From contig CAVYBU010000030.1 of assembly GCA_963766735.1 (NCBI GenBank), positions 96,001 to 160,000 of the forward strand: a stretch of DNA of 64,000 nucleotides. Direction: 5' to 3'. This document shows, piece after piece, positions 22,846 to 47,257 of this stretch (positions within the stretch are counted from its first letter, which is position 1; every line of letters begins with the position of its first letter). The notes beneath the pieces are model-generated. The model was not told the origin of the DNA, did no database searches, and saw nothing but the letters and a program-made list of their open reading frames with translations. The position numbers and the translations under genes were made by a program. This stretch comes from an uncultured Chloroflexia bacterium (GTDB lineage Bacteria > Chloroflexota > Limnocylindria > Limnocylindrales > CSP1-4).

Positions 22846-23928
22846 TCAGGAAGCCCTGCCCGCCCCCGACTCCCGTCCGGCCGCGAGGAAGGCGGCGACG
22901 TTGGCCCACGGGATGTCGGGCTCATCGATGTCGTACGCGGGGCAGAGGACGAGACCGGCAGGTCCCAGCGTCTCGATCCGCTCGCGCACCTCGCGCCGGA
23001 TCTCAGCCGGTGACGCGAACGAGAACGTGGTCTGGCGACCGACCGTCCCCCACAGGGCGAGCTGCGGGCCGTAGCGGCGCCGGATCCGGATCGCATCCAT
23101 GTGCTCGGCCTGCAGCGGGTTGATCCCGTTGACGCCGATCTCGACGAGGTCGTCCAGGATCGGCTCGAAATAGCCGTCGCTGTGGTAGATGACGCGCAGT
23201 GCGGGCGCGGTCTCCCGAGCGGCCTCGATGATCTCCGCCAGGCGCGGCCGGAAGAACTCGCGCCAGGTCGCCGGGCCGATCATCATCGTGCCTGGCATGC
23301 CCACGTCGTCGTCGAGGGCAAGGACGTCGATGCCGGCGCCCGCGAGCGCGACGGCGTTGCGCCGTGCGAGCTCGGCGAGGCGGTCCAGCAGGAAGTGCGC
23401 CATCTCCTTCCGTTCGACGAGATCGAGCAGGAACTGCTCAAGCCCCCGCAGGCGCCACGCCGCCTCAAATAGCTCGCCGCCGAGATGGGGCGTGTTGCCA
23501 CCGGCGGCGAGGCCGAGCGCGTGGAGGTCCGCGACCTGGGCGGCGAGCCCGTCCGCGACGTAGGGTCCGTCCACGGCCGGGAACGGGAAGCGTTCGAGAT
23601 CGTCCAGGGAACGCGCAGCCTCCAGCGGGTTGCCGCCCGGCGCCTGCTCCGGGTGGTATCCCCAGCTGGCGTAGCGCGCCGCCTGGGAGACGCTGCCGAT
23701 GCGCGTGTTGCCATCGAAGGGCATCGCCAGGCGCCTCAGCTCCGCTTCCTCCGGCGAAACGGGGAACGCGACGAAGGCAACGTCCACCAGGTCGTCCTGC
23801 CACGCGCCGGGCGGCGCCAGGGCCCGGCCGTCGACCTCGTAGAAGCTGAGGGCGAGCGGGATCCGGTCCGGGATCCGGCCGTCGAGCGCGGCGAGGACCC
23901 GCGCCCTCCCGTCCTCCACGGCCGTCAC
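22846..23928 (-). CDS. Uroporphyrinogen decarboxylase-fold (UroD/MtaA-CmuA-like) protein
   Basis: FEAAWRLRGLEQFLLDL, DDVG, YHSDG, NPLQ, WGTVGRQ. Confidence 0.85.
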   Translation of the reverse strand: MTAVEDGRARVLAALDGRIPDRIPLALSFYEVDGRALAPPGAWQDDLVDVAFVAFPVSPEEAELRRLAMPFDGNTRIGSVSQAARYASWGYHPEQAPGGNPLEAARSLDDLERFPFPAVDGPYVADGLAAQVADLHALGLAAGGNTPHLGGELFEAAWRLRGLEQFLLDLVERKEMAHFLLDRLAELARRNAVALAGAGIDVLALDDDVGMPGTMMIGPATWREFFRPRLAEIIEAARETAPALRVIYHSDGYFEPILDDLVEIGVNGINPLQAEHMDAIRIRRRYGPQLALWGTVGRQTTFSFASPAEIRREVRERIETLGPAGLVLCPAYDIDEPDIPWANVAAFLAAGRESGAGRAS

Positions 23929-23937
23929 CGACTCGTC

Positions 23938-25377
23938 CTACAGGACCGAGGAGGGACCGTCGATGACGGCGTCCGTGACCATCCGCCTCAGCACTCGCGC
24001 CGTGGCCGAGCGCCGGTATGCGGCCGTCGAGCGAAGGCCATCACGTGGGTGAATGTCCAGGAGGATGGCCTCGGCAGCACGGGCGGCCACGTCGGTGCCC
24101 GGGACCGCACCCTCCAGGACAGCCTCGGCGCTGGGCGCCCGGATCGGCACTTCGGTGATCGTGCCGACCGCGACGCGGACGTCATGCCAGGCCAACGACC
24201 CGGGATCCTGCCGCCACGCCACCGCGAGCGCGACCTTGGCGAGCGCGAGGGCCCGACGGGTGCCGATCTTGCGGTAGCGCAGCTGCCGACCGGCCCCCAG
24301 CGGGAACTCCATCCGGAGCAGCAGCTCGCCCGGCCGGAGCGCCGTCCGCCGGTAGCCGATGAAGAACGACGCCGCCGGGATCTCCCGCTCGCCGTCCGGT
24401 CCGCCGGCGACCAGGACGGCTTCCGCGGCCAGCACCAGCGGCAGGCTGTCGCCCGCCGGCGAGGCGTTCACCACGTTGCCACCCAGGGTCGCCATGTTCT
24501 GGAGCTGTGTTGCCCCGAACGCGGACGCCATCTGCGCCAGCGCCGGGAGGTGGGCCCGGACAAGCTCCGACCCGCGCAGGTCGGCATAGGTTGCCGTCGC
24601 GCCGACCACGAGCCGGTCGCCCTCGATCCTGATCCCGCGGAGCTCCTCGATCCCGGTCAGGTCGAGCAGCGCCTTGTCGGCCGCCGAGGCGTCGCCCGCG
24701 AGCTCGACCATGACGTCGGTTCCGCCGGCGATCGGTCGCCAGGGGCCCGTTGCGAGGAGCGCATACGCGTCGGTGAGCGTCGTCGGGCGCACGAAGACGG
24801 GCCCGGCCCGCACATCCGCCCCGGCTTCCACGTTGGCGCGGACCGCGGCGCCGCCGAGCTCGCCCGACACCTGCGGCAGCCCGCCCGGCACCTCGCGCGG
24901 CGCCATCGTGGCTGCGTTCGCGATCGCGTCGATGATCTTCATGTACCCGGTGCATCGGCAGAGGTTGCCGGCGATCACCTCGCGGATTGCGGCGTCCGTC
25001 GGTTCGGCGCCGGAGTCGAGGAATGCCCGCGCCGACATCAGGATGCCGGGGGTGCAGATGCCGCACTGCACGCCGCCGGAGTCCACGAAGGCAGCCTGGA
25101 TCGGGTCCAGCCGCCCGTCGCTGGCCAGCCCCTCGACCGTGCGGACTTCGCGGCCCTCCACCTGGCCCATCGGGACCAGGCAGCTGACCACCGGGGTCCC
25201 GTCCACCAGGACCGTGCAGGCGCCGCACTCGCCCTCCCCGCAGCCCTCCTTGGTGCCGGTGAGACCGAGCTCGATGCGCAGGGCATCCAGCAGGCGCAGC
25301 CCGCCGGGTCCGGCGACCTCGACCGGGTTGCCATTGACCGTGAAGCGGGTTGTCCGGGCAGGCGCGGCGGTCGTCAT
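23938..25377 (-). CDS. Molybdenum hydroxylase fused [2Fe-2S] + FAD subunit (CoxS-CoxM/XdhC-XdhB-like)
   Basis: GTKEGCGEGECGACTV, QCGICTPG, GNLCRCTGY, then IAGGTD and NMATLGGNVVNASPAGD FAD motifs. Confidence 0.93.
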   Translation of the reverse strand: MTTAAPARTTRFTVNGNPVEVAGPGGLRLLDALRIELGLTGTKEGCGEGECGACTVLVDGTPVVSCLVPMGQVEGREVRTVEGLASDGRLDPIQAAFVDSGGVQCGICTPGILMSARAFLDSGAEPTDAAIREVIAGNLCRCTGYMKIIDAIANAATMAPREVPGGLPQVSGELGGAAVRANVEAGADVRAGPVFVRPTTLTDAYALLATGPWRPIAGGTDVMVELAGDASAADKALLDLTGIEELRGIRIEGDRLVVGATATYADLRGSELVRAHLPALAQMASAFGATQLQNMATLGGNVVNASPAGDSLPLVLAAEAVLVAGGPDGEREIPAASFFIGYRRTALRPGELLLRMEFPLGAGRQLRYRKIGTRRALALAKVALAVAWRQDPGSLAWHDVRVAVGTITEVPIRAPSAEAVLEGAVPGTDVAARAAEAILLDIHPRDGLRSTAAYRRSATARVLRRMVTDAVIDGPSSVL

Positions 25378-27688
25378 GACCGGACCTCCTCTGCGTCGCG
25401 GTCGGCCGCGTCGAGCGCCGCGAGGATCCGCTCCGGCGTGGCGGGCAGCTCGTGGATCCAGACGCCGGTCGCGTCGTGGATGGCGGCGACGACCGCCGGC
25501 GCCACGACGTCCATCGGCAGCTCGCCGAGCCCCTTGGCGCCGTGTGGCGCGTCCGAGAAGGGGTTCTCCACCAGGACGGCCGTGATCTTCGGCGCGTCGA
25601 GCGAGGTGGGGATCAGGTACTTCGATAGCCGGTCGTTGAGGAACCGGCCGTCCTTGAGCTTCATCTCCTCGATCGTGGCATAGCCGACCGCCTGGAGCGA
25701 ACCGCCCTCCACCTGGCCGGCGGCCATCAGCGGGTTGATGACCGTGCCGCAATCGTCCGCGGAGACGACGTGCCTCACGGCCACCTCGCCGGTGTCGAGG
25801 TCCACCTCGACCTCGACCGTGGCAGCCGCCCAGGAGAACGCCGGGTAGGCGTCACCGACGTAGGTCGCGTCGTCCCAGGTGATGTCCGGGTAGCCGGTGA
25901 ACTGCTCGTCGAAGCGGAGGGCGCCATGGGTCCGGGCGACGTCGCCGTAGACCGCCGAGAACGGCCCGCGGCGCGTTCCTCGACGGCAGCCCGGAGCCGA
26001 TCGGATGCAAGGGCGAGGAGGCCGCCGACGACCATCGTGCTGCGCGAGGCGACGGTCGGGCCGCTGTTGGGGACGACGGAGGTGTCCTGGCGAACGATGC
26101 CCACGTCCTCGAACGGGATGCCGAGCCGGTCCGCCACGATCTGGGCGAAGACGGTCCGCACTCCCTGACCCATCTCGGTCTGGTTGGAGACGGCGAGGAC
26201 GCGCCCGTCCGCCGTCAGCTCCACCGCGGCGATGCTGGCGAGGTACTTCTCGCCACCGCCCGTGAAGCCGGCTCCATGCCAGCCCATCGCGACCCCGATC
26301 CCGGGCGCGCTGCGCGCCCTGCCGGCCGCGCGGTCGACGGTGCGAGCGGCGGCGAAGGTGCTCCGGCGGGTCTCGAAGTCGCTCGCCTCGAGCGCAGCCG
26401 CCAGGGTCTCCCGGGCCGACACGCTGTCCTTCAGCACCTGCTGGGTCGGGGTCAGGTCCCCGAGCTGGTAGGCCCAGCGCGCCCGCAGCTCCGCCGGCGA
26501 GACGCCGAGCGCATCGGCGATCCGGTTGACCTGCATCTCGGCGGCGAACTCCGTCTGGGGTGCGCCGAAGCCGCGGAAGGCGCCCGTGGGCGGCGTGTGG
26601 GTCTGCACTGCTCGCGCGTGGATGCGCACGTTCGGGCAGGCGTACGGGCCGGCCGAGTGGAGGGTCCCGCGGGAGAGCACCACCGACGAGAGGGTCGCGT
26701 AGGCGCCGCCGTCGAAGGTGATGTCGATGTCCTGGGCGATCAGCCGGCCGTCGCGCGTGACGCCGGTGCGATGGGTGATCACCGCCGGATGGCGCTTCGT
26801 GGTGACCGAGATGTCCTCGTGACGATCGTAGATCAGGCGGACCGGGCGACCGACCGCGAGGGCGAGCATGGCGGCATGGATGGCCAGCCCGGACGGGAAC
26901 TCCTCCTTGCCGCCGAAGGCACCGCCGGTGTCCTCCTGGACGACCACGCACCGCTCGCCGTCGAGGCCGAGGGCCCGCTTCATGGCCGCGTGGACGTAGT
27001 ACGGGCACTGCAGCGAGCCGTGGACCGTGACGCCGCCGTCCGGCCGCGGCACGGCGATCATGCCCTGGGTCTCGATGTAGAGCTGCTCCTGGTGGCCGAC
27101 GCGGTAGGTCCCCTCGATGACCAGGTCCGCCTCGGCGAACCCCGCCTCGAGGTCGCCGCGGGCGATGTTGTACTCGGTGAAGACGTGGTCGGACGCGAGC
27201 ATGTCGGTGACGGCCGGGAGCGGCTCCGTACGAAGCCGGATGTGGTCGCGCGCGGCGTGCGCCAGCGCAAGCGTGGGGGCCGCGACGAGGGCGACCGCCT
27301 CGCCGATGTGGCAGATCTCGTCCACCGCGAGGACCGGCTGGTCGTCCTTCATCAGGTGGATGACGTTCTCGCCCGGCACGTCGGCTGCCGTGAGCACCAC
27401 CACCCGGCTCCAGTCGAAGGCGGGGTCGCGCTCGATCCCGAGCAGGCGGGCATGCGGCTCGGTGGCCCGGACCGTGGCGCCGTGCCATGCCCCGGGTACG
27501 ACGAAGTCGTCGGTGTACCGCGTGGCGCCGAGCAGCTTGGCAACGGCATCCACCCGGGGCACGGACCGCGGGTCGGCTGCGGGATCGCGGATCCAGGTGG
27601 CCGGCGACGCCTCTGGTGGGACCGCCACGGGAGGCGCGGTCAGGACAGGCGTCGCGTGGGGGGTGCGGATCGGCGCCTGCGTCGTCAT
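25374..27688 (-). pseudogene. Xanthine dehydrogenase-family molybdopterin subunit with a 1-bp frameshift at ~25962-25975 (possibly a sequencing error)
   Basis: N-terminal part in ORF 25775-27805 (GGAFGGKEE, AFRGFGAPQ, EMGQG, TVASR). C-terminal part in ORF 25374-27488 (EVEVDLDTGEV, GQVEGG, AKGLGELP). Adding one base joins them (…VEERAGGPFSAVY…). Confidence 0.88.
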
Positions 27689-27693
27689 GGCTG

Positions 27694-28644
27694 CTACTCG
27701 TCCTTCACGATGTGGGTCCCGGCCTTGCCGCGGACCGCGCCCAGGAGGTTCTCCGGGTCCGTGATGATGGCTTCGCGGCCACCCCGCTCCAGGAACCAGA
27801 TGCATGCCTCGATCTTGGGCGCCATGCTGCCCTTTGCGAAGTGCCTGCCCTCGGCAAGATACGTCCTGGCCTCGGACAGCGTCATCCTGTCGATGAACCG
27901 CTGCTCAGGCGTGCCGAAGTCAAGGGCGACCCGGTCCACGGCGGTGGCGATCACCAGGAGGTCGGCCCCGAGATCGCTGGCCAGCAGGGAGCTGGCGAAG
28001 TCCTTGTCGATGACCGCGGGAGTGCCGTGCAGGTTTCCGCCCGCGTCCGCCACGACCGGGATCCCGCCGCCACCAACCGTGATGACGATGAAGCCGGCGC
28101 CAACCAGGGTCCTGACGGCGTTGAGCTCGACGATCCGCATCGGCCTCGGCGAGGCGACCACGCATCGCTTGCCTCGACCGGCATCCTCGACGACCGTCCA
28201 GCCGTCGGCCTGCCGCTTCGCCGCAGTCTCGTCATCGAGGAACGAGCCGATCGGCTTGGTCGGGTTGGCGAACGCCGGGTCGTTCCGGTCCACCTCCACC
28301 TGGGTCACGACGGTGACCGCTTCCTTGTCCAGCCCGAGGCGGGCGAAGTCGTGGCCCAGCGCCTGCTGAAGCTCGTACCCGATTGCGCCCTGCGAGTCGG
28401 CGCCACAGACGTCGAGCGGCACCTCGTGCAGCTCGTGGGCGGCGAGCTCCGAGCGGCGCAGGATGAAGCCGACCTGGGGCCCGTTGCCGTGCCCGATCGC
28501 CATCCGCCAGCCATCCGCGATGAGGGCCGCCAGGTGGTGGCTGGTCTGCTCGAGCGCCGCGATCTGGTCCGGCACCGACTGGTGCTGCTTGTCCTTGATC
28601 AGCGCATTGCCGCCGATCGCGACAACCATGAGGGGACTCGTCAT
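27694..28644 (-). CDS. arcC: Carbamate kinase (YqeA/ArcC)
   Basis: VVAIGGNAL, GHGNGPQVG, PTKPIG, VVASPRP, GGGGIPV, VIDKD, GSMAPK. Confidence 0.95.
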   Translation of the reverse strand: MTSPLMVVAIGGNALIKDKQHQSVPDQIAALEQTSHHLAALIADGWRMAIGHGNGPQVGFILRRSELAAHELHEVPLDVCGADSQGAIGYELQQALGHDFARLGLDKEAVTVVTQVEVDRNDPAFANPTKPIGSFLDDETAAKRQADGWTVVEDAGRGKRCVVASPRPMRIVELNAVRTLVGAGFIVITVGGGGIPVVADAGGNLHGTPAVIDKDFASSLLASDLGADLLVIATAVDRVALDFGTPEQRFIDRMTLSEARTYLAEGRHFAKGSMAPKIEACIWFLERGGREAIITDPENLLGAVRGKAGTHIVKDE

Positions 28645-28747: not shown

Positions 28748-29725
28748 TCAGCGCATCGTGAGCGCCATCACCGCCTTCTGGGCGTGCAGCCGGTTCTCGG
28801 CCTCGTCGTACACGACCGAGTGCGGGCCGTCGATGACGGCGTCCGCGACCTCGATGTTCCGGTCGGCCGGGAGTGGGTGCATATAGATCGCGTCGTCGGC
28901 GGCGAGGGCCATGCGGCGCTCGTCGGTGATCCAGTCCGTGTACTTCCTGCCGATCTCGGCACCCTCCTCGTCGCTCTTCGCGACGAGGAGCGGGCCCCAG
29001 CTCTTGGCGTAGATCACGTCGGAGCCCTTGAAGCCGGCGTCGAAGTCGTCCATCAGCTCGAGGCTGCCGCCCGACGCACGGGCGTTCTCGGCTGCCTGGT
29101 CAACGTACTCCTGGGGCAGCCTGTACTCGGGTGGATGCACCAGGCGCACGTTCATCCCGAAGCGGGTGGTGGCCAGGGTCAGGTCGAGCGGCACGGAGAG
29201 CGGCTTCTGGTAGCTGGCCGCGTACGCCCAGCTGACCGTGATCGTCTTCCCGCGCAGGTCGCTCTTCTTCTCCTTCATCGTCAACAGGTCGGCGAGGATC
29301 TGGTGCGGATGGAAGAGATCGCACTGCATGTTCAACACGGGAACGCGGCTCGCCTGGGCCACGGCGCGCTGGTAGGCGTTGCCCTCGCCCCAGGTGACGT
29401 GGCGGATGGCGATCCCATCGTTGTAGCGGCCCAGGATCTCGCCGATCTCCTTGGGGGTGTCCCCGTGGGCGATCTGCGTCGTCCGGCTCTCGATGAACTG
29501 GGCGTGGCCGCCCAGCTGGGCCATCCCCGCCTCGAACGACGCGCGGGTGCGCGTGCTCGAGAAGAAGAAGAGCATGGCCAGCACCTTGTTATCGAGCAGG
29601 GGGTGCTGGATGCCGAGGGCGCGCTCCATCTTGAGACGGGCGGCGACCTCGAGGATGGAATCGACCTCCTCCCTCGTCCATTCCTGGAGCGAGATGAGGT
29701 CGCGGCCGCGAAGGCCGGTCTGCAT
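28748..29725 (-). CDS. YgeW-like (knotted-type) carbamoyltransferase
   Basis: STRTRASF, NMQCDLFHPHQ, SWAYAASYQKPLSVP (YgeW-type loop), YAKSW, MHPLPADR, EAENRLH. Confidence 0.85.
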   Translation of the reverse strand: MQTGLRGRDLISLQEWTREEVDSILEVAARLKMERALGIQHPLLDNKVLAMLFFFSSTRTRASFEAGMAQLGGHAQFIESRTTQIAHGDTPKEIGEILGRYNDGIAIRHVTWGEGNAYQRAVAQASRVPVLNMQCDLFHPHQILADLLTMKEKKSDLRGKTITVSWAYAASYQKPLSVPLDLTLATTRFGMNVRLVHPPEYRLPQEYVDQAAENARASGGSLELMDDFDAGFKGSDVIYAKSWGPLLVAKSDEEGAEIGRKYTDWITDERRMALAADDAIYMHPLPADRNIEVADAVIDGPHSVVYDEAENRLHAQKAVMALTMR

Positions 29726-29752
29726 GATGCGGACTCCTTCCGGGTGCTCGGG

Positions 29753-30706
29753 CTACTCGGCCGCGCCGAGGATGAGCGTGAGGAGCGACATCTTCAGGGC
29801 GACGCCGTTGAAGGCCTCGGCCCAGTAGCGCTGGTGGCGGGTGGCGTCCACGTCGGGCAGCAGCTCGTCCATGCGCGGCAGGGAGTGCAGGATCATCGAG
29901 CTGCGCTTCGCCTTCTCCTTGAGAAGCTGGCGGGTGATGCAGTACTCCGGCGGCGTGAGGCCCACCTGGTCACCGCGCTCCACCCGCGACGAGGTGTAGT
30001 CGGCCTGGACCACCGGCTCCATGTAGATGACGTCGGCCTCGCCGATCACGTCACGAACGTCGCCCGCTTCGACATAGTCGACGTTCAGTTCGTCGATCTC
30101 GGCCTTGAACTCGGGCAGGAGCGACATGTCGGGCGGGCCGACCACGATCGCCTTGGCGTCGAACTGGCTGAGCGCGTAGAGGATCGAATGCATGGTCCGC
30201 ATGCGCATGTCGCCGACCAGGAGCCAGGTCAGCCCGTCGAGGGTGCCCTTCTCGAGCAGCGTGGTGTAGAGGTCGGTCAGAACCTGGGTCGGGTGCTCAC
30301 CCCAGCCGTCGCCGCAGTTGATGATCGGCACGGAAGACCACTTCGCGGCCTCTGCCGGCGCGCCCTGCTGGAAGTGGCGGATCGCGATCACGTCCGCGTA
30401 GTACTCCAGCATGTGGAAGGTGTCCTTGATCGACTCCTGGTAGAAGTCGCCGGCGCGGGTCATCTTCGAGTCCGCGAAGCCCAGGACGTGCCCGCCAAGG
30501 CGATGCATGGCGGCTTCATGGGACAGGCGCGTCCGGGTGCTGGGCTGGTAGAACGCCGTCAGCAGCGTCTTGTGCTTCAGGAGATCCGTGTTGCGCCGGT
30601 CGCGGGCGAAGGGACGCAGGTCGTCGGCGACCTGGAACACGCGGAAGTACTCATCGCGACTGAAGTCCTTCAGGGACAGGATGTCGCGGCCGGCGAAGCT
30701 CCTCAT
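29753..30706 (-). CDS. ATCase-like carbamoyltransferase with an altered amino-acid pocket
   Basis: YQPSTRTRLSHEAAMHRLGG, INCGDG..EHPTQ, RTMHS, HSLPR. YMEPVVQ replaces the canonical YMTRVQ. Confidence 0.85.
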   Translation of the reverse strand: MRSFAGRDILSLKDFSRDEYFRVFQVADDLRPFARDRRNTDLLKHKTLLTAFYQPSTRTRLSHEAAMHRLGGHVLGFADSKMTRAGDFYQESIKDTFHMLEYYADVIAIRHFQQGAPAEAAKWSSVPIINCGDGWGEHPTQVLTDLYTTLLEKGTLDGLTWLLVGDMRMRTMHSILYALSQFDAKAIVVGPPDMSLLPEFKAEIDELNVDYVEAGDVRDVIGEADVIYMEPVVQADYTSSRVERGDQVGLTPPEYCITRQLLKEKAKRSSMILHSLPRMDELLPDVDATRHQRYWAEAFNGVALKMSLLTLILGAAE

Positions 30707-32138
30707 GACCTGGTGTCCTCCTTGGGACTATGACGACGACCATCCGGGTCCGGGGACACCTGGCCGTCCGGTTCTCGCTGGACGCCGCTGAAGACAACGG
30801 CGACCGTTTCGTCTGGATCGAGCGCGCCTGCGCGCGCCAGGTGGAGCAGCCCGGCGAAGCCGGAGGAGCCCGTATGGTCGACAAGGATCCCGGTTGCCGC
30901 GCGGGCGAGGCTGTTGGCCTCTTCCAGCGTCGGCTCGTCGACCACGATAGGCGTTCCTCCCGTCAGGAGCATGCCCCGCACGACGGCCTGCCAATCGTAG
31001 GTCTCGTCGTCCAGTATGCCGTGGGCGATGCTGTGAGGAGCCTCTTCCCACGGCCACATGAATTCGGCGCGGTGGCGTGCCGCATAGGCAAGCGCCGCGT
31101 CCACGCTCTCACCCGCGACCACGCGCGCGGCCACGCGCTCGTGGGCCCGTGCGAGCGGGAAGGCACCCTGGGTCTGCACGGTATCGAAGCGCGGCAGCGG
31201 GATGTCCATCCCGGCAGCGGGGGCGTTCTCGAACCCGGCCATGATCGACGATGCGAAGGCGCCGCCGCCCACCTGGATCACCACGCGGTCGATTCGCTCC
31301 GGCCCGTTCGTCTGGCCCACAGCCGCCGCCATCTCGAGCCCCAGGGTCTCGCCGCCTTCCACCGCGAACGCGTTGAGGTTGCCCTGACAGGTGAACGGTG
31401 CCGCCCCGGCCGCGATCGCGTCCAGGAGGCGCAGGTACGTCGGGTCGCCGGCCACGCCCGGTTGCCGTTCGCAGATCTCCAGCTCGGCGCCCAGGGTGCG
31501 CAGCCGGGTGACGACCGCCTCGTCTGCATCGGGCGGGATGAAGACGAGGAGCCGTCGCTCCGCGGCCCGCGCCACGACCGCAGCCGCGAGTGCCGCGTTG
31601 CCGCAGCTGGCGATCGCCAGCGGTGTGTCGCCCGTCACGGTGCCCGCAACCTCGAGCTCGACCAGCGAACCGAAGAGATGACGGGCCTTGTGCGAACCCG
31701 ACACGTTGCCGGTTTCGTCCTTGACCCACACCCCGCCACGTGCAGAGAAGCCGAGGCGCTCCGACAGCACCGCACTGCGCGCGAATGGCGTCACCCGGAA
31801 GCCGTGGTCGGCCACGCGGGCGACCGCGGCGTCCAGGCGCTCCACCAGGGCGACATATCGCTCGTCCGTCCAGCCCGCGGCCAGGGCCGCATGCCAGGCG
31901 TGGAACAGGCGTCGGTAGGCGACGAACGGATTCTCAGAGGGTGCCGGCGTCATCGGCGAAGCCGCCGGGTCCAGCAGTCGCACCAGGATGTGATCGATGC
32001 CGTCAGCCGGCCTGGCGGCCGGGCAGATGAGCGGTACCGGGGTGCCGATGGTCGGACGGAAGCCGCAACCCGCGCACGCAAACCAGGTCGCGGGCATCTC
32101 GCCTGGTTCGCGGAGGCCGGGCGCCTCCAACCGCGCCG

Positions 32139-32142
<4 letters not shown>
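30703..32142 (-). CDS. PLP-dependent fold-type II enzyme (threonine synthase-like, N-terminal CxxC)
   Basis: [32 protein letters not shown]. Confidence 0.85.
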
Positions 32143-33638
<1,496 letters not shown>

Positions 33639-33741
33639 CCTGCACTCCCTGCGACGCCCCTGGCGCTCGCGGCATGCGGCCGGGACGGACCCCATCCCGG
33701 GTCGCTGTCGACCGTGTTGGGTGGCAAATCGCCTGCCCGAA

Positions 33742-33806: not shown

Positions 33807-33899
33807 ACCTAAGCAACGCGAGATGGCAATGAGACCGGAATCGGGCGGCAGAATTGGCCCGGGATCCGTCCTCGAGGCAGCCCAGATGGCAGGAGACCG

Positions 33900-36626: not shown

Positions 36627-37649
36627 ATGTCGGCGGTCACACCGGGTCTCGTCTGCGCCCACCATCACCTCTACTCGGCACTGGCGCGGGGGATGCCGGC
36701 GCCGCCGAAGGTGGCGACCAACTTCGGTGAGATCCTCGAGCAGGTCTGGTGGCGCCTGGACACCGCGCTCGATCTCGAGATGATCCGCTGGTCGGCGATG
36801 CTCGGCGCGCTGGAGGCTCTCGAGAACGGCACCACGGCGATCATCGACCACCACGAATCGCCCAACGCCATCGAAGGCAGCCTGGACGTGATCGCAGAGG
36901 CCTGCGCACAGGTCGGCGTCCGCTCCCTGCTCGCCTACGGCATCACCGACCGCCACGGGCCCGATGGCGCGCGGCGCGGCCTGGCCGAGAACGAGCGCTT
37001 CATCCGGGCAGGCGGTCGGGGCCTGGTGGGCATCCACGCCGCCTTCACGTGTTCCGACGAATCGCTGGCGGCGGCGGCCGGCCTGGCCGAGGACCTTGGG
37101 GTGGGCGTGCATATCCACGTCTGCGAGGGGATAGGCGACATCGACGCGCCGGGACGCCTGGCCGGCCTGACCCGCGACGACTGGCTGCTCAGCCACTGCG
37201 TCCACCTGCCCACGGATCACGACCTGCGCGGGACCATCCTCCACAACCCGATGTCCAACCTGAACAACGCCGTCGGGTACGCGAACCCCGCCCGCTTCTC
37301 CAATCCGGTCGCGCTGGGTACCGACGGGATCGGCGGCAACGTCCTGGAGGCGTTCCGACTGGCCTACGTCATGCAGCGTTCGGTGGACGTGACCTGTGGG
37401 CCCGACACGGCCTGGTCGTGGCTCGAGGCCGGCTGGGATCTCGTGCCGGAGGCCCGCGAGGACGCGGTGACCTGGTCGTATGACCCGATGGACCCCTGGC
37501 ACATCGCCTTCACCCCGGGAATCATGCCGCGCCAGGTCACGATCGGCGGCGAGGTCGTGTTCACCGACGGCAGGCCGACCCGCGTCGACGCCGGCGAGAT
37601 CCGCGCCAAGGCCCGCGAGCAGGCCGCCCGTCTGCACGCCCGCCTCTGA
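36627..37649 (+). CDS. ssnA: SsnA-like amidohydrolase (short form)
   Basis: PGLVCAHHHLYSALARGM, LEQVWWRLD, GTTAIIDHHESPNAIEGSL, GIHAAFT, HNPMSNLNNAVG, LGTDG. Confidence 0.85.
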   Translation: MSAVTPGLVCAHHHLYSALARGMPAPPKVATNFGEILEQVWWRLDTALDLEMIRWSAMLGALEALENGTTAIIDHHESPNAIEGSLDVIAEACAQVGVRSLLAYGITDRHGPDGARRGLAENERFIRAGGRGLVGIHAAFTCSDESLAAAAGLAEDLGVGVHIHVCEGIGDIDAPGRLAGLTRDDWLLSHCVHLPTDHDLRGTILHNPMSNLNNAVGYANPARFSNPVALGTDGIGGNVLEAFRLAYVMQRSVDVTCGPDTAWSWLEAGWDLVPEAREDAVTWSYDPMDPWHIAFTPGIMPRQVTIGGEVVFTDGRPTRVDAGEIRAKAREQAARLHARL

Positions 37650-37701: not shown

Positions 37702-41127
<3,426 letters not shown>

Positions 41128-41221: not shown

Positions 41222-42127
41222 TCACGGTTTGCCGTATGTCGACCCGAATGCCGCCAACTCCGCCAGCAGCGCACCAACCGCAGGGTGGCCTCGTCGCTCG
41301 GAGCGGACGGCGGCCAGAACTCGTCGTTCCAGCGGCGGTCGGAGCGGGACGATACGTGCCCGGACCGTGCGGTCGTGGAGGGCCAGCCCTGGAATGACGC
41401 CGACGCCGAGGCCGGCCGCGACGAGGGCGAGGGTCACCGAGTGGTCCTTGCAGTGAGACAGCACGTTCGGGTCGAAGCCGGCCCGCCGACAGGCGCGCAC
41501 GGTGACCTCGAAGATGCTGCTCGTGTCCGTGTCCATGAACCAGGTGTGATCACGGAGATCGGCGAGCGCGATGCCACCGGCAGGCGTCTGCTCGTCGGGC
41601 GGAAGCGCGACATAGAGCGGGTCGCGGAAGATCTCGACGGTATCGATGCCCGGCGACCAGGCCTCACTCCCCTCGTCGTACTCGTCGACGACTGCGAGAT
41701 CGATCTCGTCCACCTGCAGGGCGATGAGGCTCTCGCTCGACTCCAGGTCGCGCAGCATCAGGCGCAGCTTCGGATGATTGCGACGGAGCGCCTCGAGGAC
41801 CTGCGGCATCACCGCCCGGGCCGCAGTGGGGAAGGCCGCAACCCTGAACGATCCGACGATCTCGTCCCGGGCGGCGGCCAGCTCGGCTTCCGCGGCGGCG
41901 ACCGCCGCGGCGATCACATCCGCGTGACGGACAAGCATCAGCCCGGCGTCGGTCAGGCGCACCAGGCGGCCATGGGGCTCCAGCAGGGGCGCGCCCGCCT
42001 CCTGCTCCAGGATCTTGAGCTGCTGCGAGACAGCGGACGGCGTGATCGACATCGCCTGTGCGGCAGCCTTGAGGGTGCCGCGGCGTGCGACCTCGCGCAG
42101 GAGCTGGAGGCGCCACATCCCGAGCAT
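41222..42127 (-). CDS. LysR-family transcriptional regulator
   Basis: GTLKAAAQAMSITPSAVSQQLKILEQEAG HTH, LTDAG, LVAAGLGVGVIP. Confidence 0.93.
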   Translation of the reverse strand: MLGMWRLQLLREVARRGTLKAAAQAMSITPSAVSQQLKILEQEAGAPLLEPHGRLVRLTDAGLMLVRHADVIAAAVAAAEAELAAARDEIVGSFRVAAFPTAARAVMPQVLEALRRNHPKLRLMLRDLESSESLIALQVDEIDLAVVDEYDEGSEAWSPGIDTVEIFRDPLYVALPPDEQTPAGGIALADLRDHTWFMDTDTSSIFEVTVRACRRAGFDPNVLSHCKDHSVTLALVAAGLGVGVIPGLALHDRTVRARIVPLRPPLERRVLAAVRSERRGHPAVGALLAELAAFGSTYGKP

Positions 42128-42289: not shown

Positions 42290-43531
42290 ATGAGCGGACG
42301 AAGACCGCTGATCGCACTCCTGTTGACACTCGCGCTCGCCACGGGCGCGTGCTCCGAGGGAGCGACCAGCACGCCATTGGCGGGTGCGACGGACGCCGCC
42401 ACGGCGGATCCCGGCGGCGCCGGTCTCCAGATCCCGGACGTGGTGGACGGCAAGTTCAACGTCGCGATGGTCCTGATCGGGCCCCATGACGACGGCGGCT
42501 GGAGCCAGGCCCACTACGAGGGCCTCGACTACGTCGGCAAGAACATGGCCGATTCCCACGTGGCCTACATCGAGAACGTGCCCGAAGGCGCGGACTCCGA
42601 GCAGGTCTTCCGGAGCCTTTCGCGCAAGGGCTTCGACTTCATCATCGGCACCTCCTTCGGGTACATGGACCCGATGGCGACCGTCGCCGAGGAGTTCCCG
42701 GACATCACGTACCTCCACCTGACGGGGTACAAGTCGAACTTCACGAACTTCGGCAACTTCTTCGGCGCGGTCGAGGACATGAAGTACCTCGCCGGCATGC
42801 TCGCCGGGTCGCGCGCCAAGCTGGACGGCAACCCCAAGGTCGGCTACATGGCCACCTTCCCCATCCCGGAGGAGATCCGGCTGGGCAACGCCATCATGCT
42901 GGGCGTCAAGAAGACCTGCCCCGAGTGCACGATGGACATCCGCTGGATCAACACCTGGCACGATCCGGTCAAGGAGAAGGATGCGGCTGCCTCGCTGTTC
43001 GACGCGGGCGCCCAGGTCGTGTTCACCGGTGCCGACACCCCGGCCGTCGCGGACGTCGCGCAGGAGAAGGGGAAGTGGGGCGTCACGTACGACCACCCGT
43101 CCTCCTGCAAGGTCGACGCCTGCCTGACGGCCCCCTACTGGATCTGGGGGCCGGAGTACCTGCGCATCGCCGAGCAGGTCAAGGCCGGTACCTACGAGGC
43201 CGGCTACGAGTACTTCGATGCCGACAGCCAGGCCATGGGCCTGTTCGGGTTCATGGACGGCGAGACGCCCCAGCCGGGGATCAGCGACCTCCCGGCCGCC
43301 GATGTCCAGGCGGTCAAGGACACCCTGGCCAAGATGCTCACGGGTGAGTTCAACCGCTTCGACGTCTTCGCCGGTCCGATCACGGACAACACCGGCAAGG
43401 CGGTCCTCGCGGCCGGCGCCAAGCTGGAACAGGCCGACCTCGACCAGTTCCCGCCGGGAGCCGAGGGCAACCCCTGCACGGTCTGCATGCAGTGGCTTGC
43501 CGACGGCATCACCGGGACGATCCCCGAGTAG
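42290..43531 (+). CDS. BMP-family ABC transporter substrate-binding lipoprotein (purine/nucleoside)
   Basis: Lipobox LATGAC; GPHDDGGWSQAHYEG, IIGTSFGYMD, YLAGMLAG, WINTWHDPVKE. Confidence 0.92.
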   Translation: MSGRRPLIALLLTLALATGACSEGATSTPLAGATDAATADPGGAGLQIPDVVDGKFNVAMVLIGPHDDGGWSQAHYEGLDYVGKNMADSHVAYIENVPEGADSEQVFRSLSRKGFDFIIGTSFGYMDPMATVAEEFPDITYLHLTGYKSNFTNFGNFFGAVEDMKYLAGMLAGSRAKLDGNPKVGYMATFPIPEEIRLGNAIMLGVKKTCPECTMDIRWINTWHDPVKEKDAAASLFDAGAQVVFTGADTPAVADVAQEKGKWGVTYDHPSSCKVDACLTAPYWIWGPEYLRIAEQVKAGTYEAGYEYFDADSQAMGLFGFMDGETPQPGISDLPAADVQAVKDTLAKMLTGEFNRFDVFAGPITDNTGKAVLAAGAKLEQADLDQFPPGAEGNPCTVCMQWLADGITGTIPE

Positions 43532-43536
43532 CAGCC

Positions 43537-43574
43537 TCGTCCGGCCCGCGGCGCAACCGCCGCGGGCCGGACGA
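43537..43574 (+). terminator. Intercistronic 17-bp stem-loop after the substrate-binding gene (mRNA stabiliser or partial terminator)
   Basis: TCGTCCGGCCCGCGGCG-caac-CGCCGCGGGCCGGACGA; no U-tract. Confidence 0.75.
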
Positions 43575-43605
43575 TTCCGAGGAGCGGTCCCTGATCTCGC
43601 CTGAC

Positions 43606-45165
43606 GTGTCGACCGATCCCCAGGCCACGCCGCTCGCCGTCGAGCTACGGGGCATCGTCAAGCAGTTCCCCGGCGTCCTCGCGAACGACCAGGTCGACTT
43701 CGAGCTCCGGCCGGGCGAAGTTCACGCGCTGCTCGGGGAGAACGGCGCCGGCAAGAGCACGCTCATGAACATCCTGGCGGGTCTCTACAGGCCCGACGCC
43801 GGGGTGATCCGCGTGGGTGGCGCGATCCAGGACTTCCACTCGCCCCGCGACGCCATCGCGGCGGGCCTCGGCATGGTCCACCAGCACTTCACGCTGGTCG
43901 ACTCGCAGACCGTGACCGAGAACGTACTCCTGGGCCTGGACGAGCCGCGCTTCCGCATGCGCCTTGGCCGGTACGAGGACCGGATCGCCGACCTGTCGGA
44001 GTCGTTCGGGCTGCGGGTCGACCCGCGGGCCAAGGTCTGGCAGCTCTCCGTGGGCGAGCAGCAGCGGGTCGAGATCCTGAAGATGCTCTACCGCGGCGTC
44101 CACATCCTGATCATGGACGAGCCAACGGCGGTCCTGGCACCGCAGGAGACCGAGGAGCTCTTCAGGACGTTGCGCTCCATGATCGCGAGCGGCCACTCCA
44201 TCGTCTTCATCAGCCACAAGCTGACCGAGGTCGCCTCGATCGCCGACCGGATCACGGTCATGCGCCGGGGACGGGTCACCGCGGCCGGGATCGCCACGGC
44301 CACGACCACGCGCACCAGCCTCGCCGAGCTGATGGTCGGGCGACCCGTGATCGAGGTGCTCGAGCGAACGCCGTTCAACCCGGGCGATGTCATCCTGTCG
44401 GTGCGGGACGTCGAGGCAATGAACGACCGCGGCCTGCCGGCCCTGCGGGGGGTCTCCTTCGACGTGCGCGCGGGAGAGATCCTGGGGATCGCCGGCGTTG
44501 CCGGCAACGGCCAGTCCGAGCTCGCGCAGGTGATCACCGGACTCCGTCCCTGCCATGGCCACATCGAGGTCGCGGGTGCCGAGACGGCCAACCATCCGAC
44601 CGGCGAGACGATCCGGCGCGGGGTCGCCCACGTTCCAGAGGACCGGACCGGCGTCGGCAGTGCGCCCAACCTGTCCGTCATGGACAACCTGATCATGAAG
44701 AGCTACAGGCGCCCGCCGATCGCCCGTGGCTGGGTCGTGGACCAGGCCGCCGCCCGCCGGATCTCGGAGGGCCTCCGCGAGGGGTACCAGATCCTGACCC
44801 CATCGGTCGACACGGCAGCCCGGCTGCTCTCCGGTGGCAACCTCCAGCGCCTGATCCTGGCCCGGGAGATCGATCAGGACCCGCGGCTGCTCGTGGCCGT
44901 CCAGCCGACGCGCGGACTCGATGTCGGGGCCATCGAGGGCGTACATCGCCTGCTCCTCGCCCGCCGGGAATCGGGCTCCGCGACGATCATGATCTCGGAG
45001 GACCTCGACGAGGTGCTCGCCCTCTCGGACCGGATCGCCGTCATGTACGAGGGGCACCTCCACGGCCCGTTCAGCGCGGCCGAGGTTGACGCCCGGGGCC
45101 TGGGCATGCTCATGACCGGCGGCGACTGGCAGCCCGCCTCCTCTACGACCGGAGCCGCGTCATGA
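43606..45165 (+). CDS. Nucleoside/sugar ABC transporter ATP-binding protein (tandem ABC domains); start may be CTG at 43591
   Basis: LGENGAGKST, MVHQHF, LSVGEQQRVE, MDEPT, LSGGNLQR, QPTRGLDVG. Confidence 0.93.
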   Translation: MSTDPQATPLAVELRGIVKQFPGVLANDQVDFELRPGEVHALLGENGAGKSTLMNILAGLYRPDAGVIRVGGAIQDFHSPRDAIAAGLGMVHQHFTLVDSQTVTENVLLGLDEPRFRMRLGRYEDRIADLSESFGLRVDPRAKVWQLSVGEQQRVEILKMLYRGVHILIMDEPTAVLAPQETEELFRTLRSMIASGHSIVFISHKLTEVASIADRITVMRRGRVTAAGIATATTTRTSLAELMVGRPVIEVLERTPFNPGDVILSVRDVEAMNDRGLPALRGVSFDVRAGEILGIAGVAGNGQSELAQVITGLRPCHGHIEVAGAETANHPTGETIRRGVAHVPEDRTGVGSAPNLSVMDNLIMKSYRRPPIARGWVVDQAAARRISEGLREGYQILTPSVDTAARLLSGGNLQRLILAREIDQDPRLLVAVQPTRGLDVGAIEGVHRLLLARRESGSATIMISEDLDEVLALSDRIAVMYEGHLHGPFSAAEVDARGLGMLMTGGDWQPASSTTGAAS

Positions 45166-46286
45166 GCGCCTCGCAGGTCCCGCTCGCCCCGCCTCCCAGG
45201 GCGCGGCGGATGCCCTACACGGTCTCGCTCGAACGACGCCTCGACGAGCCCCGCTGGTCCGGGCTCATCACCCTCGTCGCAGTGCTGGTCGCGCTCGTCA
45301 TCAGCGGCCTGATGATCGCGCTCGTGGGCGGCGATCCCATCCGGTCGTACGTGCACATCATCGGGGCGGCGTTCGGCAGCCCGGGGGTCATCTCGGACAC
45401 GCTGGTGAAGGCGACGCCGCTCATCCTTGCCGGCCTCGCCTGCGCCCTCGCCTTCCGGATGCGCCTCTGGAACATCGGCGTCGAAGGCCAGTACCTGATG
45501 GGCGCCTGGGGAGCCACCGCCGTGGTGATGATCCCGCTGGTGCCGGCCGACGCGCCAGCCCCGGTCATGCTGATCGCGATGGCCGTCGCAGGGTTCCTCA
45601 GCGGTGCCATCTGGGGATCGATCCCGGGCCTTCTGAAGGCGTACCTCAAGGTGAACGAGATCATCGTCACCCTGATGCTCAACTACGTCGCCCTGCTGTT
45701 CATCCAGTACTGGGTCTTCGGTCCGTGGAGCGAGGGCGGCTTCCAGATGACAAAGCAGTTCCCGAGGACCGCGTGGCTGCCGCGACTCTCCGACTTCGCG
45801 GACAGCGTTCCCGCCTTCGGCGGCCTGACCGTCCACGCCGGGTTCCTGATCGCCCTGCTGGCTGCGACGATCGTCTGGCTCGTCGTCCGGCGGAGTCGCT
45901 GGGGGTTCGTCATCCAGCTGGTGGGCGACAGCCCCAACGCAGCCCGGTATGCGGGCGTCAACATCAAGCGCGACATCGTGCTGGTGTTCATGGTCTCGGG
46001 CGGGCTCGCCGGCCTCGCCGGCATGAGCGAGGTCGCCGGCGCCGTTCATCGCCTCCAGGACAGCTCGCCCGGCTACGGTTTCACGGCGATCATCGTGGCC
46101 TACCTGGCGCGGTTCAACCCCCTTGGGGTCATCGTCGCCGCGATCCTGTTCGCGGCGCTGATCCTCGCCGGCCGTGAGATCCAGCCGTCCGGCATCCCGG
46201 CGATGGTCCAGGGGATCGTCCTGTTCTGCGTGATCGCCAGCGACGTCCTGCGCCGCTACAGCGTTCGCGTGCAGAGGGCTGCCTGA
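45162..46286 (+). CDS. Nucleoside ABC transporter permease
   Basis: ATPLILAGL, WNIGVEGQ, VNEIIVTLMLNY, GYGFTAIIVA. Confidence 0.92.
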   Translation: MSASQVPLAPPPRARRMPYTVSLERRLDEPRWSGLITLVAVLVALVISGLMIALVGGDPIRSYVHIIGAAFGSPGVISDTLVKATPLILAGLACALAFRMRLWNIGVEGQYLMGAWGATAVVMIPLVPADAPAPVMLIAMAVAGFLSGAIWGSIPGLLKAYLKVNEIIVTLMLNYVALLFIQYWVFGPWSEGGFQMTKQFPRTAWLPRLSDFADSVPAFGGLTVHAGFLIALLAATIVWLVVRRSRWGFVIQLVGDSPNAARYAGVNIKRDIVLVFMVSGGLAGLAGMSEVAGAVHRLQDSSPGYGFTAIIVAYLARFNPLGVIVAAILFAALILAGREIQPSGIPAMVQGIVLFCVIASDVLRRYSVRVQRAA

Positions 46287-46288
46287 CC

Positions 46289-47257
46289 ATGGACCCGATC
46301 ATCATCCTCGCGGCAGGGGTGACCACCGGCACGGTCCTGCTGTTCGCGGCACTCGGCGAGGTCTTCGCGGAGCGATCCGGCATCATCAACCTCGGCGTCG
46401 AGGGGATGATGCTGATGGGCGCGGTCGCGGGCTTCTCCACGGTTGTCGCAACCGGGAACCCCTGGCTCGGTGTCCTGGTTGCCATGCTGGCCGGTGTCGC
46501 ACTGTCGCTCCTCCACGCGATCGTCACGATCACCTTCCAGGCGGACCAGATCGTCTCCGGCCTCTCGCTGACGCTCCTTGGAACGGGGATCGCGCGGGTC
46601 CTGGGCGAGGGGCTCTCCAAGGCCGGCTCCACGTCGCTCCTGCCGCGGCTCACCATCCCGGGGCTCAGTGAGATCCCGGTCATCGGACCGATCTTCTTCA
46701 CCGGGCAGAGCGTGCTGGTCTACGTCGGGTTCCTCGCGGTCCCGATCGCCTGGTACTGGATCAATCGGACCCGGCCCGGGCTCCACCTCCGCGCCGTCGG
46801 CGAGAACCCCACGGCCGCCGATTCGCTGGGCGTGAACGTCTACCGGGTGCGGTACATGTACGTCATGCTGGGCGGCCTGCTGGCCGGGCTTGCGGGAGCC
46901 ACCATCACCCTGGCCATCCAGCCGGGCTGGTTCGGTGACCTGACGGTCGGCGGGCGCGGCTGGATCGCGATCGGCCTCGTGATCTTCGCCCAGTGGTCAC
47001 CGCTGCGGGTGGCCATCGGCGCGTACCTGTTCGGCGCGATCGGGCGACTGATCCTGGACATCCAGGGTCCCGCGGAGCTGTTCGGGTTCTCCAACCCGTT
47101 CCACGACGTCCACGCGCTGACCTTCTTCCTCGGCATGACACCCTACGTCCTGGTCATCGTGATCCTGGTGTTCGGCTCGCGGGAGGCCGTGCGCAAGCGC
47201 CTGGGCTCGCCGGCTGCGCTGGGCATGCCGTACGTGCGGGGCGAACGGGGACACTGA
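46289..47257 (+). CDS. Nucleoside ABC transporter permease
   Basis: ERSGIINLGVEGMML, LRAVGENP, GRGWIAIGLVIFAQWSP, PAALGMPY. Confidence 0.92.
   Translation: MDPIIILAAGVTTGTVLLFAALGEVFAERSGIINLGVEGMMLMGAVAGFSTVVATGNPWLGVLVAMLAGVALSLLHAIVTITFQADQIVSGLSLTLLGTGIARVLGEGLSKAGSTSLLPRLTIPGLSEIPVIGPIFFTGQSVLVYVGFLAVPIAWYWINRTRPGLHLRAVGENPTAADSLGVNVYRVRYMYVMLGGLLAGLAGATITLAIQPGWFGDLTVGGRGWIAIGLVIFAQWSPLRVAIGAYLFGAIGRLILDIQGPAELFGFSNPFHDVHALTFFLGMTPYVLVIVILVFGSREAVRKRLGSPAALGMPYVRGERGH

Follow-up and report, generated by a model that had tools for sequence, protein, structure and literature searches.

A probable variant of the reductive urate cluster, with two carbamoyltransferases and no YgeY or YgeX, in an uncultured Chloroflexia bacterium

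How might a bacterium remove both ureido groups of 2,3-diureidopropionate if its cluster for reductive urate degradation encodes two carbamoyltransferases and lacks the hydrolase used elsewhere? The question is raised by a 64,000-nucleotide stretch of DNA from an uncultured Chloroflexia bacterium (GCA_963766735.1, contig CAVYBU010000030.1, positions 96,001 to 160,000; hereafter the window), in which an island at 22846-47257 carries a YgeW-like carbamoyltransferase, a protein resembling aspartate carbamoyltransferase (ATCase) and a carbamate kinase. It was not until 2025 that the reductive route of urate breakdown was elucidated (PMC12507026; bioRxiv 10.1101/2025.04.24.650524). For E. coli, Liu et al. 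2025 (bioRxiv 10.1101/2025.04.24.650524) describe the formation of ATP from 2,3-diureidopropanoate by YgeW with the carbamate kinase YqeA, and Li et al. 2025 (PMC12507026) report that the ureido group left over is hydrolysed by YgeY. An earlier note, made from the letters of the window alone, had suggested that in this island both groups are phosphorolysed, for two ATP. Here, we describe the island and its relatives, and find it very probable that this is a reductive purine or urate degradation cluster. Judged by sequence, the two-transferase form free of YgeY and YgeX is a variant of the reductive urate cluster in environmental phyla, and islands of this kind characterise Chloroflexota and Actinomycetota of soil and fresh water. 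The identity of the cluster is solid and the reassignment of the ATCase-like protein as a pseudo-ATCase is well supported; the two-ATP mechanism is offered as a hypothesis.

Gene frames were chosen by third-position GC (0.82-0.94 in the frames picked, in a window of 67-74% G+C) and named with Pfam and NCBIfam (Table 1), which confirmed the gene order of both arms as the earlier note had read it; the several ATGA-type stop/start overlaps that it mentioned were found at three junctions (PALP-A/PALP-B, PALP-B/ATCase-like and Mo/FeS-FAD). The genes form two divergent operons with a 258-bp spacer between them. With the reductive urate clusters of E. coli and Clostridium sporogenes (PMC12507026; bioRxiv 10.1101/2025.04.24.650524) the island shares an XdhAC/XdhD-type enzyme, YgfK, an SsnA-like protein, a YgeW-type transferase and carbamate kinase, as well as a purine importer, a second xanthine dehydrogenase (XDH) and the divergent operon layout. 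It differs from them in having no HyuA, YgeY or YgeX in the window, in the additional ATCase-like gene, in two pyridoxal-phosphate (PLP) enzymes, PALP-A and PALP-B, that are unrelated at the family level to YgeX, and in SsnA and YgeW-like proteins that are short forms under the family cutoffs. The hosts differ as well, those clusters being from gut Bacillota and Pseudomonadota and this one from high-GC environmental Chloroflexota and Actinomycetota.

Absence was assessed by tblastn, in which 18 proteins of the E. coli K-12 cluster were compared with the six-frame translation of the 64-kb window, at E<=1e-3 and then relaxed to E<=10. Counterparts of XdhA/B/C/D, YgeW, YqeA, YgfK and SsnA are present; YgeY, YgeX, HyuA, YqeB, YqeC, MocA, YgfM and YgfS gave no match at E<=1e-3, and under the relaxed threshold the best E values were 1.9 for YgeY, 0.038 for YgeX and 0.17 for HyuA. 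The proposal that YgeY and canonical YgeX are missing is thus borne out across the 64 kb, although the earlier list of missing genes left HyuA, which is absent too, without stress. The sole other amidohydrolase of the window (10643-12112) was considered as a hidden HyuA and rejected, being Xaa-Pro-dipeptidase-like at 426.7 bits.

Relatives of the ATCase-like protein were sought by scanning one genome per species, and at least 585 stretches encode one. Neighbourhoods were counted in the best 80 of these, with up to 10 kb of flank on each side, 42 loci having full flanks; segments were labelled by their best tblastn match among the window proteins, the E. coli proteins and five further query proteins. 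Many loci stop at contig ends, which makes the counts minimum values, and, the 80 loci having been picked by likeness to the ATCase-like protein, they are silent on ssnA clusters without that gene. De novo clustering of open reading frames in the loci merged adjoining genes and produced antisense artefacts, and served only to spot unlabelled families, which were then named by Pfam. The hosts of the best 80 loci are 37 Chloroflexota-type, 34 Actinomycetota-type and 9 other or unspecified, and almost wholly environmental metagenome-assembled genomes (MAGs) of those two phyla, in agreement with the suggestion that the lineage is environmental.

Across these loci (with the number among the 42 full-flank loci in brackets) the neighbours are the YgeW-like gene in 68 (41), PALP-B in 66 (37), PALP-A in 65 (40), the XdhAC-type gene, mostly beside SsnA, in 63 (37), SsnA in 52 (34), carbamate kinase in 49 (32), a guanine-deaminase-like gene in 21 (11) and a HyuA-like gene in 12 (9); YgeY occurs in 2 (1), and YgeX as best label in none of either set. 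PALP-B lies directly before the ATCase-like gene in 58/80, and the gene directly after it is YgeW-like in 55/80, XdhAC-type in 19 and carbamate kinase in 4, so that the second carbamoyltransferase beside the YgeW-like gene, as first read in this one window, is a recurrent arrangement. Both transferases are found in 41/42 full-flank loci, and both with carbamate kinase in 31/42. The expectation that the ATCase-like gene and ygeY would rarely occur together also fits the 2/80 loci in which they do. Three reductases appear to be interchangeable in these loci: an F420 luciferase-like reductase in 31 (16), a DHO_dh/UacX-like reductase in 11 (6) and YgfK in 10 (10), any one of them being present in 52 (32). 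Since YgfK, UacX and F420 types are the alternative reductases described around SsnA, with the F420 type assigned to Chloroflexota (Li et al. 2025, PMC12507026), the match ties the conserved module to the reductive urate pathway. Taken with the family scores, the synteny in 80 loci upholds the original view of the island as a variant of the reductive urate cluster.

What, then, is the ATCase-like protein? In an alignment of 80 sequences with E. coli PyrB, residues S52, T53, R54, T55, R105, H134, Q137, R167 and L267 are invariant (save one Ile at S52), and equally invariant are the replacements S80->R, K84->Y and P266->S. By alignment R229 is replaced by S or P and Q231 by R or V; a second alignment with more distant sequences shifts the 240s loop and gives the same verdict, both residues being lost under either alignment. 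According to Shi et al. 2015 (Table 1 of that paper), S80 and K84 belong to the carbamoyl-phosphate site and come from the adjacent subunit, and R167, R229 and Q231 to the second-substrate site of ATCase. On these residues, the phosphate-donor half of the protein reads as intact and the aspartate half as rebuilt, and the loss of K84, R229 and Q231 with the carbamoyl-phosphate ligands kept marks it as a pseudo-ATCase and not PyrB. Pseudo-ATCases are defined in Barba et al. 2013 (PMC4016543) by retention of STRT and HPTQ, H[ST]LP or HPLA for HPLP, and loss of RxQ; the window protein keeps STRTR and HPTQ, has HSLP in place of HPLP, lacks RxQ and stands in a purine-catabolic context with carbamate kinase. 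Like it, the known pseudo-ATCases are annotated as ATCase and lie in purine-catabolic clusters with carbamate kinase. Compared by their published motifs, none of the subgroups (AIA-type, GX[SC] and VXP) matches the window protein, which reads P-V-V or S-S-R by alignment and may represent a further subgroup.

An ordinary PyrB for pyrimidine synthesis, located here by chance, would account for the TIGR00670 score (Table 1), for the name "aspartate carbamoyltransferase" that the relatives bear in databases where they are named, and for the P. abyssi ATCase as nearest solved structure (229.9 bits). We find this reading scarcely credible: K84, R229 and Q231 are lost in all 80 sequences, neither pyrI nor pyrC is adjacent, the synteny with purine catabolism and carbamate kinase extends across two phyla, and Barba et al. 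2013 (PMC4016543) set such paralogues apart from the true ATCase of the same organism. The marginal 5-bit pass is read as a model that admits pseudo-ATCases. The protein also falls outside the clade of canonical enzymes when 86 full-length sequences are classified (87 matches of 295-360 aa from a library of 50%-identity representatives, of which 3 were set aside as chimeras or fragments, with PyrB and the window protein added). The canonical K84/R229/Q231 triad is present in 45/86 of these top-match sequences, which form a single clade (support 0.745); R80 without the triad is found in 37/86, the window protein among them, and 4/86 fit neither class. The triad-free ATCase-like set (among P0129-P0258) is large and diverse, with an xRAGDxY-type 80s loop and the HxLP variants HSLP, HTLP, HPLP and HPGP, which suggests, by sequence comparison, that many unrecognised carbamoyltransferase specificities are filed as PyrB. 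The window protein itself is thus likely, in our confident judgement, to be a catabolic carbamoyltransferase that acts on a substrate other than aspartate and is coupled to carbamate kinase.

The pseudo-ATCase is also the most conserved of the genes compared. Identity to the relatives in the 80 loci has a median of 77.6% (range 73.8-98%, two phyla), against medians of 56.5% for PALP-B, 64.5% for the XdhAC-type enzyme and 67.4% for carbamate kinase; in L002 the pseudo-ATCase is 98% identical and the PALP, XdhAC-type and SsnA genes only 57-77%. This contrast arises partly because the loci were selected by the pseudo-ATCase gene. Among the 1.84 billion 50%-identity representatives of the protein library, just two full-length clusters reach >=74% identity, and the full-length matches that come next are at <=50%.

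The substrate of the pseudo-ATCase is the next step of the question. Rxyl_2847 of Rubrobacter xylanophilus, with an adjoining carbamate kinase gene, converts allantoate to ureidoglycine and carbamoyl phosphate (PMC4016543), and the same ureidoglycine carbamoyltransferase (UGTCase) activity here would make the left arm part of an oxidative (allantoin) route. Although this is the activity of the only assayed pseudo-ATCase and the H(S/T)LP motif is common to both proteins, we regard such a route as very unlikely. A search of the window with Pfam and NCBIfam turned up neither uricase nor HIU hydrolase nor allantoinase; in related loci the hydantoinase-like genes pass the dihydropyrimidinase model (467 bits, cutoff 393) and fall short of the allantoinase model (249, cutoff 358); UGTCase has S102 and K106 at the positions of S80 and K84 (Shi et al. 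2015), where the window protein has R80 and Y84; and the gene is linked to SsnA, the XdhAC-type enzyme and the reductases. By analogy, a C3 diureido acid is the likely substrate here, and not allantoate.

Next to the pseudo-ATCase, the YgeW-like protein is 35% identical to E. coli YgeW (E 2e-55), with the proline-rich loop SWAYxxSYxKPLSVP and Q98, Q160, S200, K203, K270 and L331, which are invariant in 50 close relatives; Shi et al. 2015 propose these six as YgeW substrate residues. It shares with the YgeW (YTCase) proteins of E. coli and E. faecalis (PDB 3Q98, 2YFK) the proline-rich loop that marks knotted transcarbamylases, D334, E344 and the place beside carbamate kinase, at 35-37% identity; it is shorter (325 aa, YgeW 396 aa), carries HPLP in the place of HCLP, and lacks three YgeW insertions (one in the 120s loop that includes D124, one of two helices in the 240s loop, and a third) and the C-terminal helix and tail. 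Its scores of 187.5 (cutoff 453) and 175.3 (cutoff 500) against the curated YgeW models, and those against AOTCase and OTCase (Table 1), fall under every curated cutoff. The label "YgeW-like" therefore stands for the loop and the substrate residues and fails at the level of curated families, and from its sequence we describe the protein as a short, knotted-type YgeW-like transferase.

Homology and synteny indicate the early part of the route and the formation of ATP from carbamoyl phosphate by carbamate kinase. On this evidence, purines are taken up by the BMP-type importer and oxidised to urate by the PucD-type XDH; the XdhAC-type enzyme presumably converts urate to 2,8-dioxopurine and YgfK reduces this to the dihydro form; and the short SsnA would open the first ring, giving ureidomethyl-hydantoin or 5-ureido-dihydrouracil, which completes the first three steps known for the pathway. 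The later steps are inferred. A hydantoinase encoded elsewhere might then open the second ring to give 2,3-diureidopropionate. The short YgeW-like enzyme would perform the phosphorolytic step of E. coli YgeW, and the pseudo-ATCase could remove the ureido group on the alpha carbon with phosphate, replacing the hydrolase YgeY; this group is assigned to it because its ATCase ancestor handles an N-carbamoyl-alpha-amino acid, such as carbamoyl-aspartate. Carbamate kinase would turn each carbamoyl phosphate into ATP, and the PALP pair might convert 2,3-diaminopropionate to pyruvate and ammonia, for example with PALP-A catalysing beta-replacement to serine and PALP-B its dehydration.

The two-ATP idea is plausible by analogy with Rxyl_2847, which supplies a biochemical precedent. 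A related reaction is that of DPTCase of zwittermicin and viomycin biosynthesis, which interconverts diaminopropionate plus carbamoyl phosphate and beta-ureidoalanine (albizziin), and which one of the window enzymes is proposed to run in reverse; DPTCase has an HDLP motif, against HSLP and HPLP in the window enzymes, and is biosynthetic, with no link to carbamate kinase (Shi et al. 2015). Overall, the sequence features are best explained by a functional variant of the reductive urate (2,8-dioxopurine) pathway that includes both phosphorolyses, an explanation whose chances we see as evenly balanced. That both ureido groups are phosphorolysed to give two ATP is, by analogy, a realistic though tentative proposal. 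The full joint statement, that soil Chloroflexota and Actinomycetota ferment purines at two ATP per urate through a short YgeW, a re-tooled pseudo-ATCase and one carbamate kinase, with a two-enzyme PLP module replacing diaminopropionate ammonia-lyase, is possible but doubtful.

Several observations weigh against this proposal. A YgeY-like M20 gene lies beside both transferases in L040 (6320-7480; 55% identity to E. coli YgeY) and L056 (4434-5573; 40%), an arrangement that a simple replacement of YgeY by the pseudo-ATCase would not predict; these are the sole two among the 80, both loci also carry carbamate kinase, and in L056 the M20 gene shares its strand with HyuA and both PALP genes. In four loci the pseudo-ATCase is directly beside carbamate kinase, with no YgeW-like gene in the sequence covered (3 of the 4 end at a contig end), so the two transferases may be alternatives and not a pair. 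HyuA, the enzyme that forms 2,3-diureidopropionate as the proposed substrate, is lacking both in the window and in 68/80 related loci, and with a second amidohydrolase within 10 kb in only 29/80 the step yielding that substrate is unaccounted for. The selenium-cofactor genes yqeB and yqeC were not found by tblastn in the 64-kb window, the Mo subunit of the second XDH is frameshifted, and one PALP enzyme would suffice for the YgeX step, leaving the second without a role. The two primary papers differ on which ureido group YgeW removes (Percudani 2025), so the division of labour proposed for the transferases is tentative. The substrate assignments of the island enzymes are all inferred, and the choice of loci by ATCase-like likeness means that the counts give no frequency among ssnA clusters.

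Some of these points would be met by a single phosphorolysis, in which the two transferases are regio- or stereospecific alternatives (D versus L, or 2- versus 3-ureido), one ATP is made per urate, and the other ureido group leaves as urea from albizziin via PALP-A or by an unlinked hydrolase. The four loci that pair the pseudo-ATCase directly with carbamate kinase, and the disagreement on YgeW regiochemistry, speak for it, and the fold of PALP-A is that of enzymes expelling a beta-substituent from alanine derivatives, which would give the second PALP a job. The presence of both transferases in nearly all full-flank loci, and of carbamate kinase with them in 31 of the 42, fits a pair better, however, and urease and urea carboxylase are not among the genes labelled in the loci, so that we consider a single phosphorolysis unlikely.

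The missing HyuA could also mean that 2,3-diureidopropionate is bypassed. The pseudo-ATCase would then strip the exocyclic ureido group from the cyclic SsnA product, for example 5-ureido-dihydrouracil, a PALP beta-elimination would open the ring of the resulting cyclic alpha-amino compound, and the YgeW-like enzyme would cleave the acyl-urea. Besides the absence of HyuA from the window and 68/80 loci, it agrees with such a bypass that PALP-A, PALP-B and the pseudo-ATCase numerically replace HyuA, YgeY and YgeX, and that SsnA is here of a distinct, short form. Yet this trio is kept almost entire by the 12 loci whose cluster includes a hydantoinase (pseudo-ATCase 12/12, PALP-B 12/12, PALP-A 11/12), which argues that the trio does not stand in for HyuA. 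The bypass also requires an extra amidase, and none is in the cluster; R167, which binds the second substrate in ATCase, is invariant and fits an open-chain acid; and we know of no precedent for its PLP ring-opening chemistry. We judge the bypass quite unlikely, and return to the route through 2,3-diureidopropionate, for which the hydantoinase is probably encoded elsewhere.

In that route the YgeX step would fall to the two PLP enzymes. The PLP lysine and the loops for phosphate and carboxylate are retained in both, and neither passes any curated family cutoff; look-ups in the ESM Atlas returned only generic "pyridoxal-phosphate dependent enzyme" clusters for both. PALP-A has invariant K113, S141-T-G-N144 and G259-S-A-G262 (47 sequences), and its AF2 model (pLDDT 91, pTM 0.92) finds CysK/OASS as best folds (TM to target ~0.8); the model indicates a PLP enzyme of fold type II whose core resembles O-acetylserine sulfhydrylase and CBS and is extended by helices at both termini. 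PALP-B has an invariant N-terminal Cys/His motif (C24, C27, C41, H52) and invariant K153, S180-C-G-N183 and G293-G-G-A296 (42 sequences), and its AF2 model (pLDDT 87) finds threonine synthase, Asp/Ser racemase and TdcB, with diaminopropionate ammonia-lyase only at rank 44; as modelled, it is a fold-type-II PLP enzyme of the threonine-synthase, racemase or dehydratase branch. By their sequences the pair together probably does the job of YgeX, and could do so as two subunits of one enzyme, as a racemase and a lyase, or by beta-replacement to serine followed by dehydration.

The adjacency of pseudo-ATCase and ygeW is not new, because a pseudo-ATCase beside a ygeW homologue, xdhABC and hyuA was described for Nocardioides sp. 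JS614 in 2013 (PMC4016543); its meaning was hidden then because the reductive pathway was unknown. Beyond that note, full-text searches found no description of a two-transferase, YgeY- and YgeX-free variant or of its spread in soil phyla. In Liu et al. 2025 (bioRxiv 10.1101/2025.04.24.650524) the reductive urate pathway is described as enriched in host-associated microbiomes and Bacillota. Li et al. 2025 (PMC12507026) coloured neighbourhoods by Pfam, with PF00185 as YgeW and PF00291 as YgeX, which would hide the two-transferase/PALP difference. Surveys by Pfam alone would likewise take the pseudo-ATCase for "YgeW" and the PALP pair for "YgeX", and surveys requiring YgeY, YgeX or HyuA would miss these organisms. 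The scan of species-representative genomes found the marker gene of the variant in at least 585 stretches. Phosphorolysis of the second ureido group as well, if it takes place, would double what purine fermentation yields in energy at this step; and if the proposal as a whole is true, the reductive urate pathway is not mainly a gut trait but a common soil route to energy and nitrogen under the label "aspartate carbamoyltransferase". The analysis also offers a candidate substrate for a large, very conserved family annotated PyrB and for two uncharacterised PLP enzyme families, and the island amounts to a natural experiment that could show which of the ureido groups is attacked by enzymes of the YgeW type.

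Table 1. Positions, strands and family matches of the island's features, numbered along the window
Feature	Position	Strand	Family match and remarks
UroD/MtaA-fold gene	22846-23928	-	PF01208 74.5 bits; weak match to MtaA structure 4AY7; 9 nt downstream of FeS/FAD gene
[2Fe-2S]+FAD subunit, second XDH	23938-25377	-	Fer2, Fer2_2, FAD_binding_5, CO_deh_flav_C; TIGR02963 312 bits, cutoff 467
Mo subunit of second, PucD/XdhB-type XDH	25374-27691	-	frame A = pucD 6-550, frame B = 588-755
Carbamate kinase	27694-28644	-	TIGR00746 361.5 bits, cutoff 358.25; 50% identity to E. coli YqeA
Short YgeW-like carbamoyltransferase	28748-29725	-	325 aa; AOTCase 253.6 (cutoff 288), OTCase 251 (cutoff 306)
ATCase-like carbamoyltransferase (pseudo-ATCase)	29753-30706	-	TIGR00670 242.2 bits, cutoff 236.95
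PALP-B	30703-32142	-	479 aa; PF00291 115.5 bits; weakly threonine-synthase- or dehydratase-like
PALP-A	32139-33641	-	500 aa; PF00291 38 bits; CysK-like 74.9 bits, far under cutoff
Divergent intergenic (promoter) region	33642-33899		perfect inverted repeat at 33775-33804
Fused [2Fe-2S]+Mo hydroxylase, XdhAC / "selenium-dependent XDH" type	33900-36560	+	TIGR03311 952.9 bits, cutoff 830.45
Short-form SsnA amidohydrolase	36627-37649	+	340 aa; SsnA profile positions 56-340 of 444, 258.6 bits, cutoff 444
YgfK-type Fe-S flavoprotein, dearomatising reductase	37702-41127	+	TIGR03315 873.8 bits, cutoff 835.3; 35% identity to E. coli YgfK residues 1-999
LysR-family regulator	41222-42127	-	HTH_1 and LysR_substrate domains
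BMP/PnrA-type ABC importer	42290-47257	+	Bmp, ABC_tran, BPD_transp_2 domains; binding protein 42290-43531, ATPase ~43492-45165 (start uncertain), permeases 45162-46286 and 46289-47257

The right arm holds the enzymes that would act before the ureido groups are released. From its family match the XdhAC-type protein is presumed to be the urate to 2,8-dioxopurine reductase. The residue proposed to orient urate in E. coli XdhD, Glu606 (Li et al. 2025, PMC12507026), aligns with Pro in the window enzyme and in 24/26 XdhAC-type sequences overall (the window and 25 loci), in an alignment that at ~26% identity is too weak to use. The protein named SsnA in the earlier note aligns at 32% identity with residues 54-438 of E. 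coli SsnA, and its name needs one amendment: the protein is a short form without ~53 N-terminal residues, starting just before the HxH metal motif. No upstream frame that could supply the missing N-terminus exists. The short start recurs in 14/46 SsnA-bearing loci, the other 32 having the full-length form, and is thus a natural short form of SsnA. It is without the N-terminal beta-sandwich strands, and YgfK is present in 8/14 short-SsnA loci versus 1/32 long-SsnA loci.

In the left arm, the PucD-type Mo subunit of the second XDH is broken by a 1-nt frameshift near 25955-25969, seen as a single-base gap in the DNA alignment; its ortholog in L015 (12190-14376) is one open frame. The frameshift is either a sequencing error or the mark of a pseudogene, and similar breaks are seen in several related long-read MAG loci. 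Transporters akin to the BMP importer are present in several related loci, and adenosine deaminase in 7/80.

The divergent promoter region is AT-richer and contains the inverted repeat GGTTACA-N16-TGTAACC (33775-33804), flanked by CTCACCT direct repeats. The repeat occurs once in the window, and 0/100 shuffles match it. As a conserved operator it was rejected, being absent from 82 related loci and 26 equivalent intergenic regions; it may be a lineage-specific operator. Rfam returned no riboswitch or other family for the whole window (gathering thresholds) or for 33500-34000 (E<=1). The 7-mer TGGCCCT, often inside CTGGCCCTAG, is found near the XdhAC-type start in 21/27 XdhAC-type/PALP-A intergenic regions (e.g. 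L002, L007, L013) and may be a shared regulatory site; the window's own copy is degenerate only.

At the far end of the left arm, a UroD-like gene follows the carbamoyltransferase module in L004, L008 and L013 as well. An HhH-GPD glycosylase gene (22150-22809) adjoins the UroD-like gene of the window, and the same pair comes after the YgeW-like gene in L008 and L013, so the two may be backbone synteny and not pathway genes; the pathway membership of the UroD/MtaA-fold gene is uncertain. Outside the island, the window has a pyruvate:ferredoxin oxidoreductase fragment at its edge (3-2441, minus strand) and an F420H2-dependent quinone-reductase-like gene at 15323-15703, which hint that the host uses F420 and has a low-oxygen metabolism.

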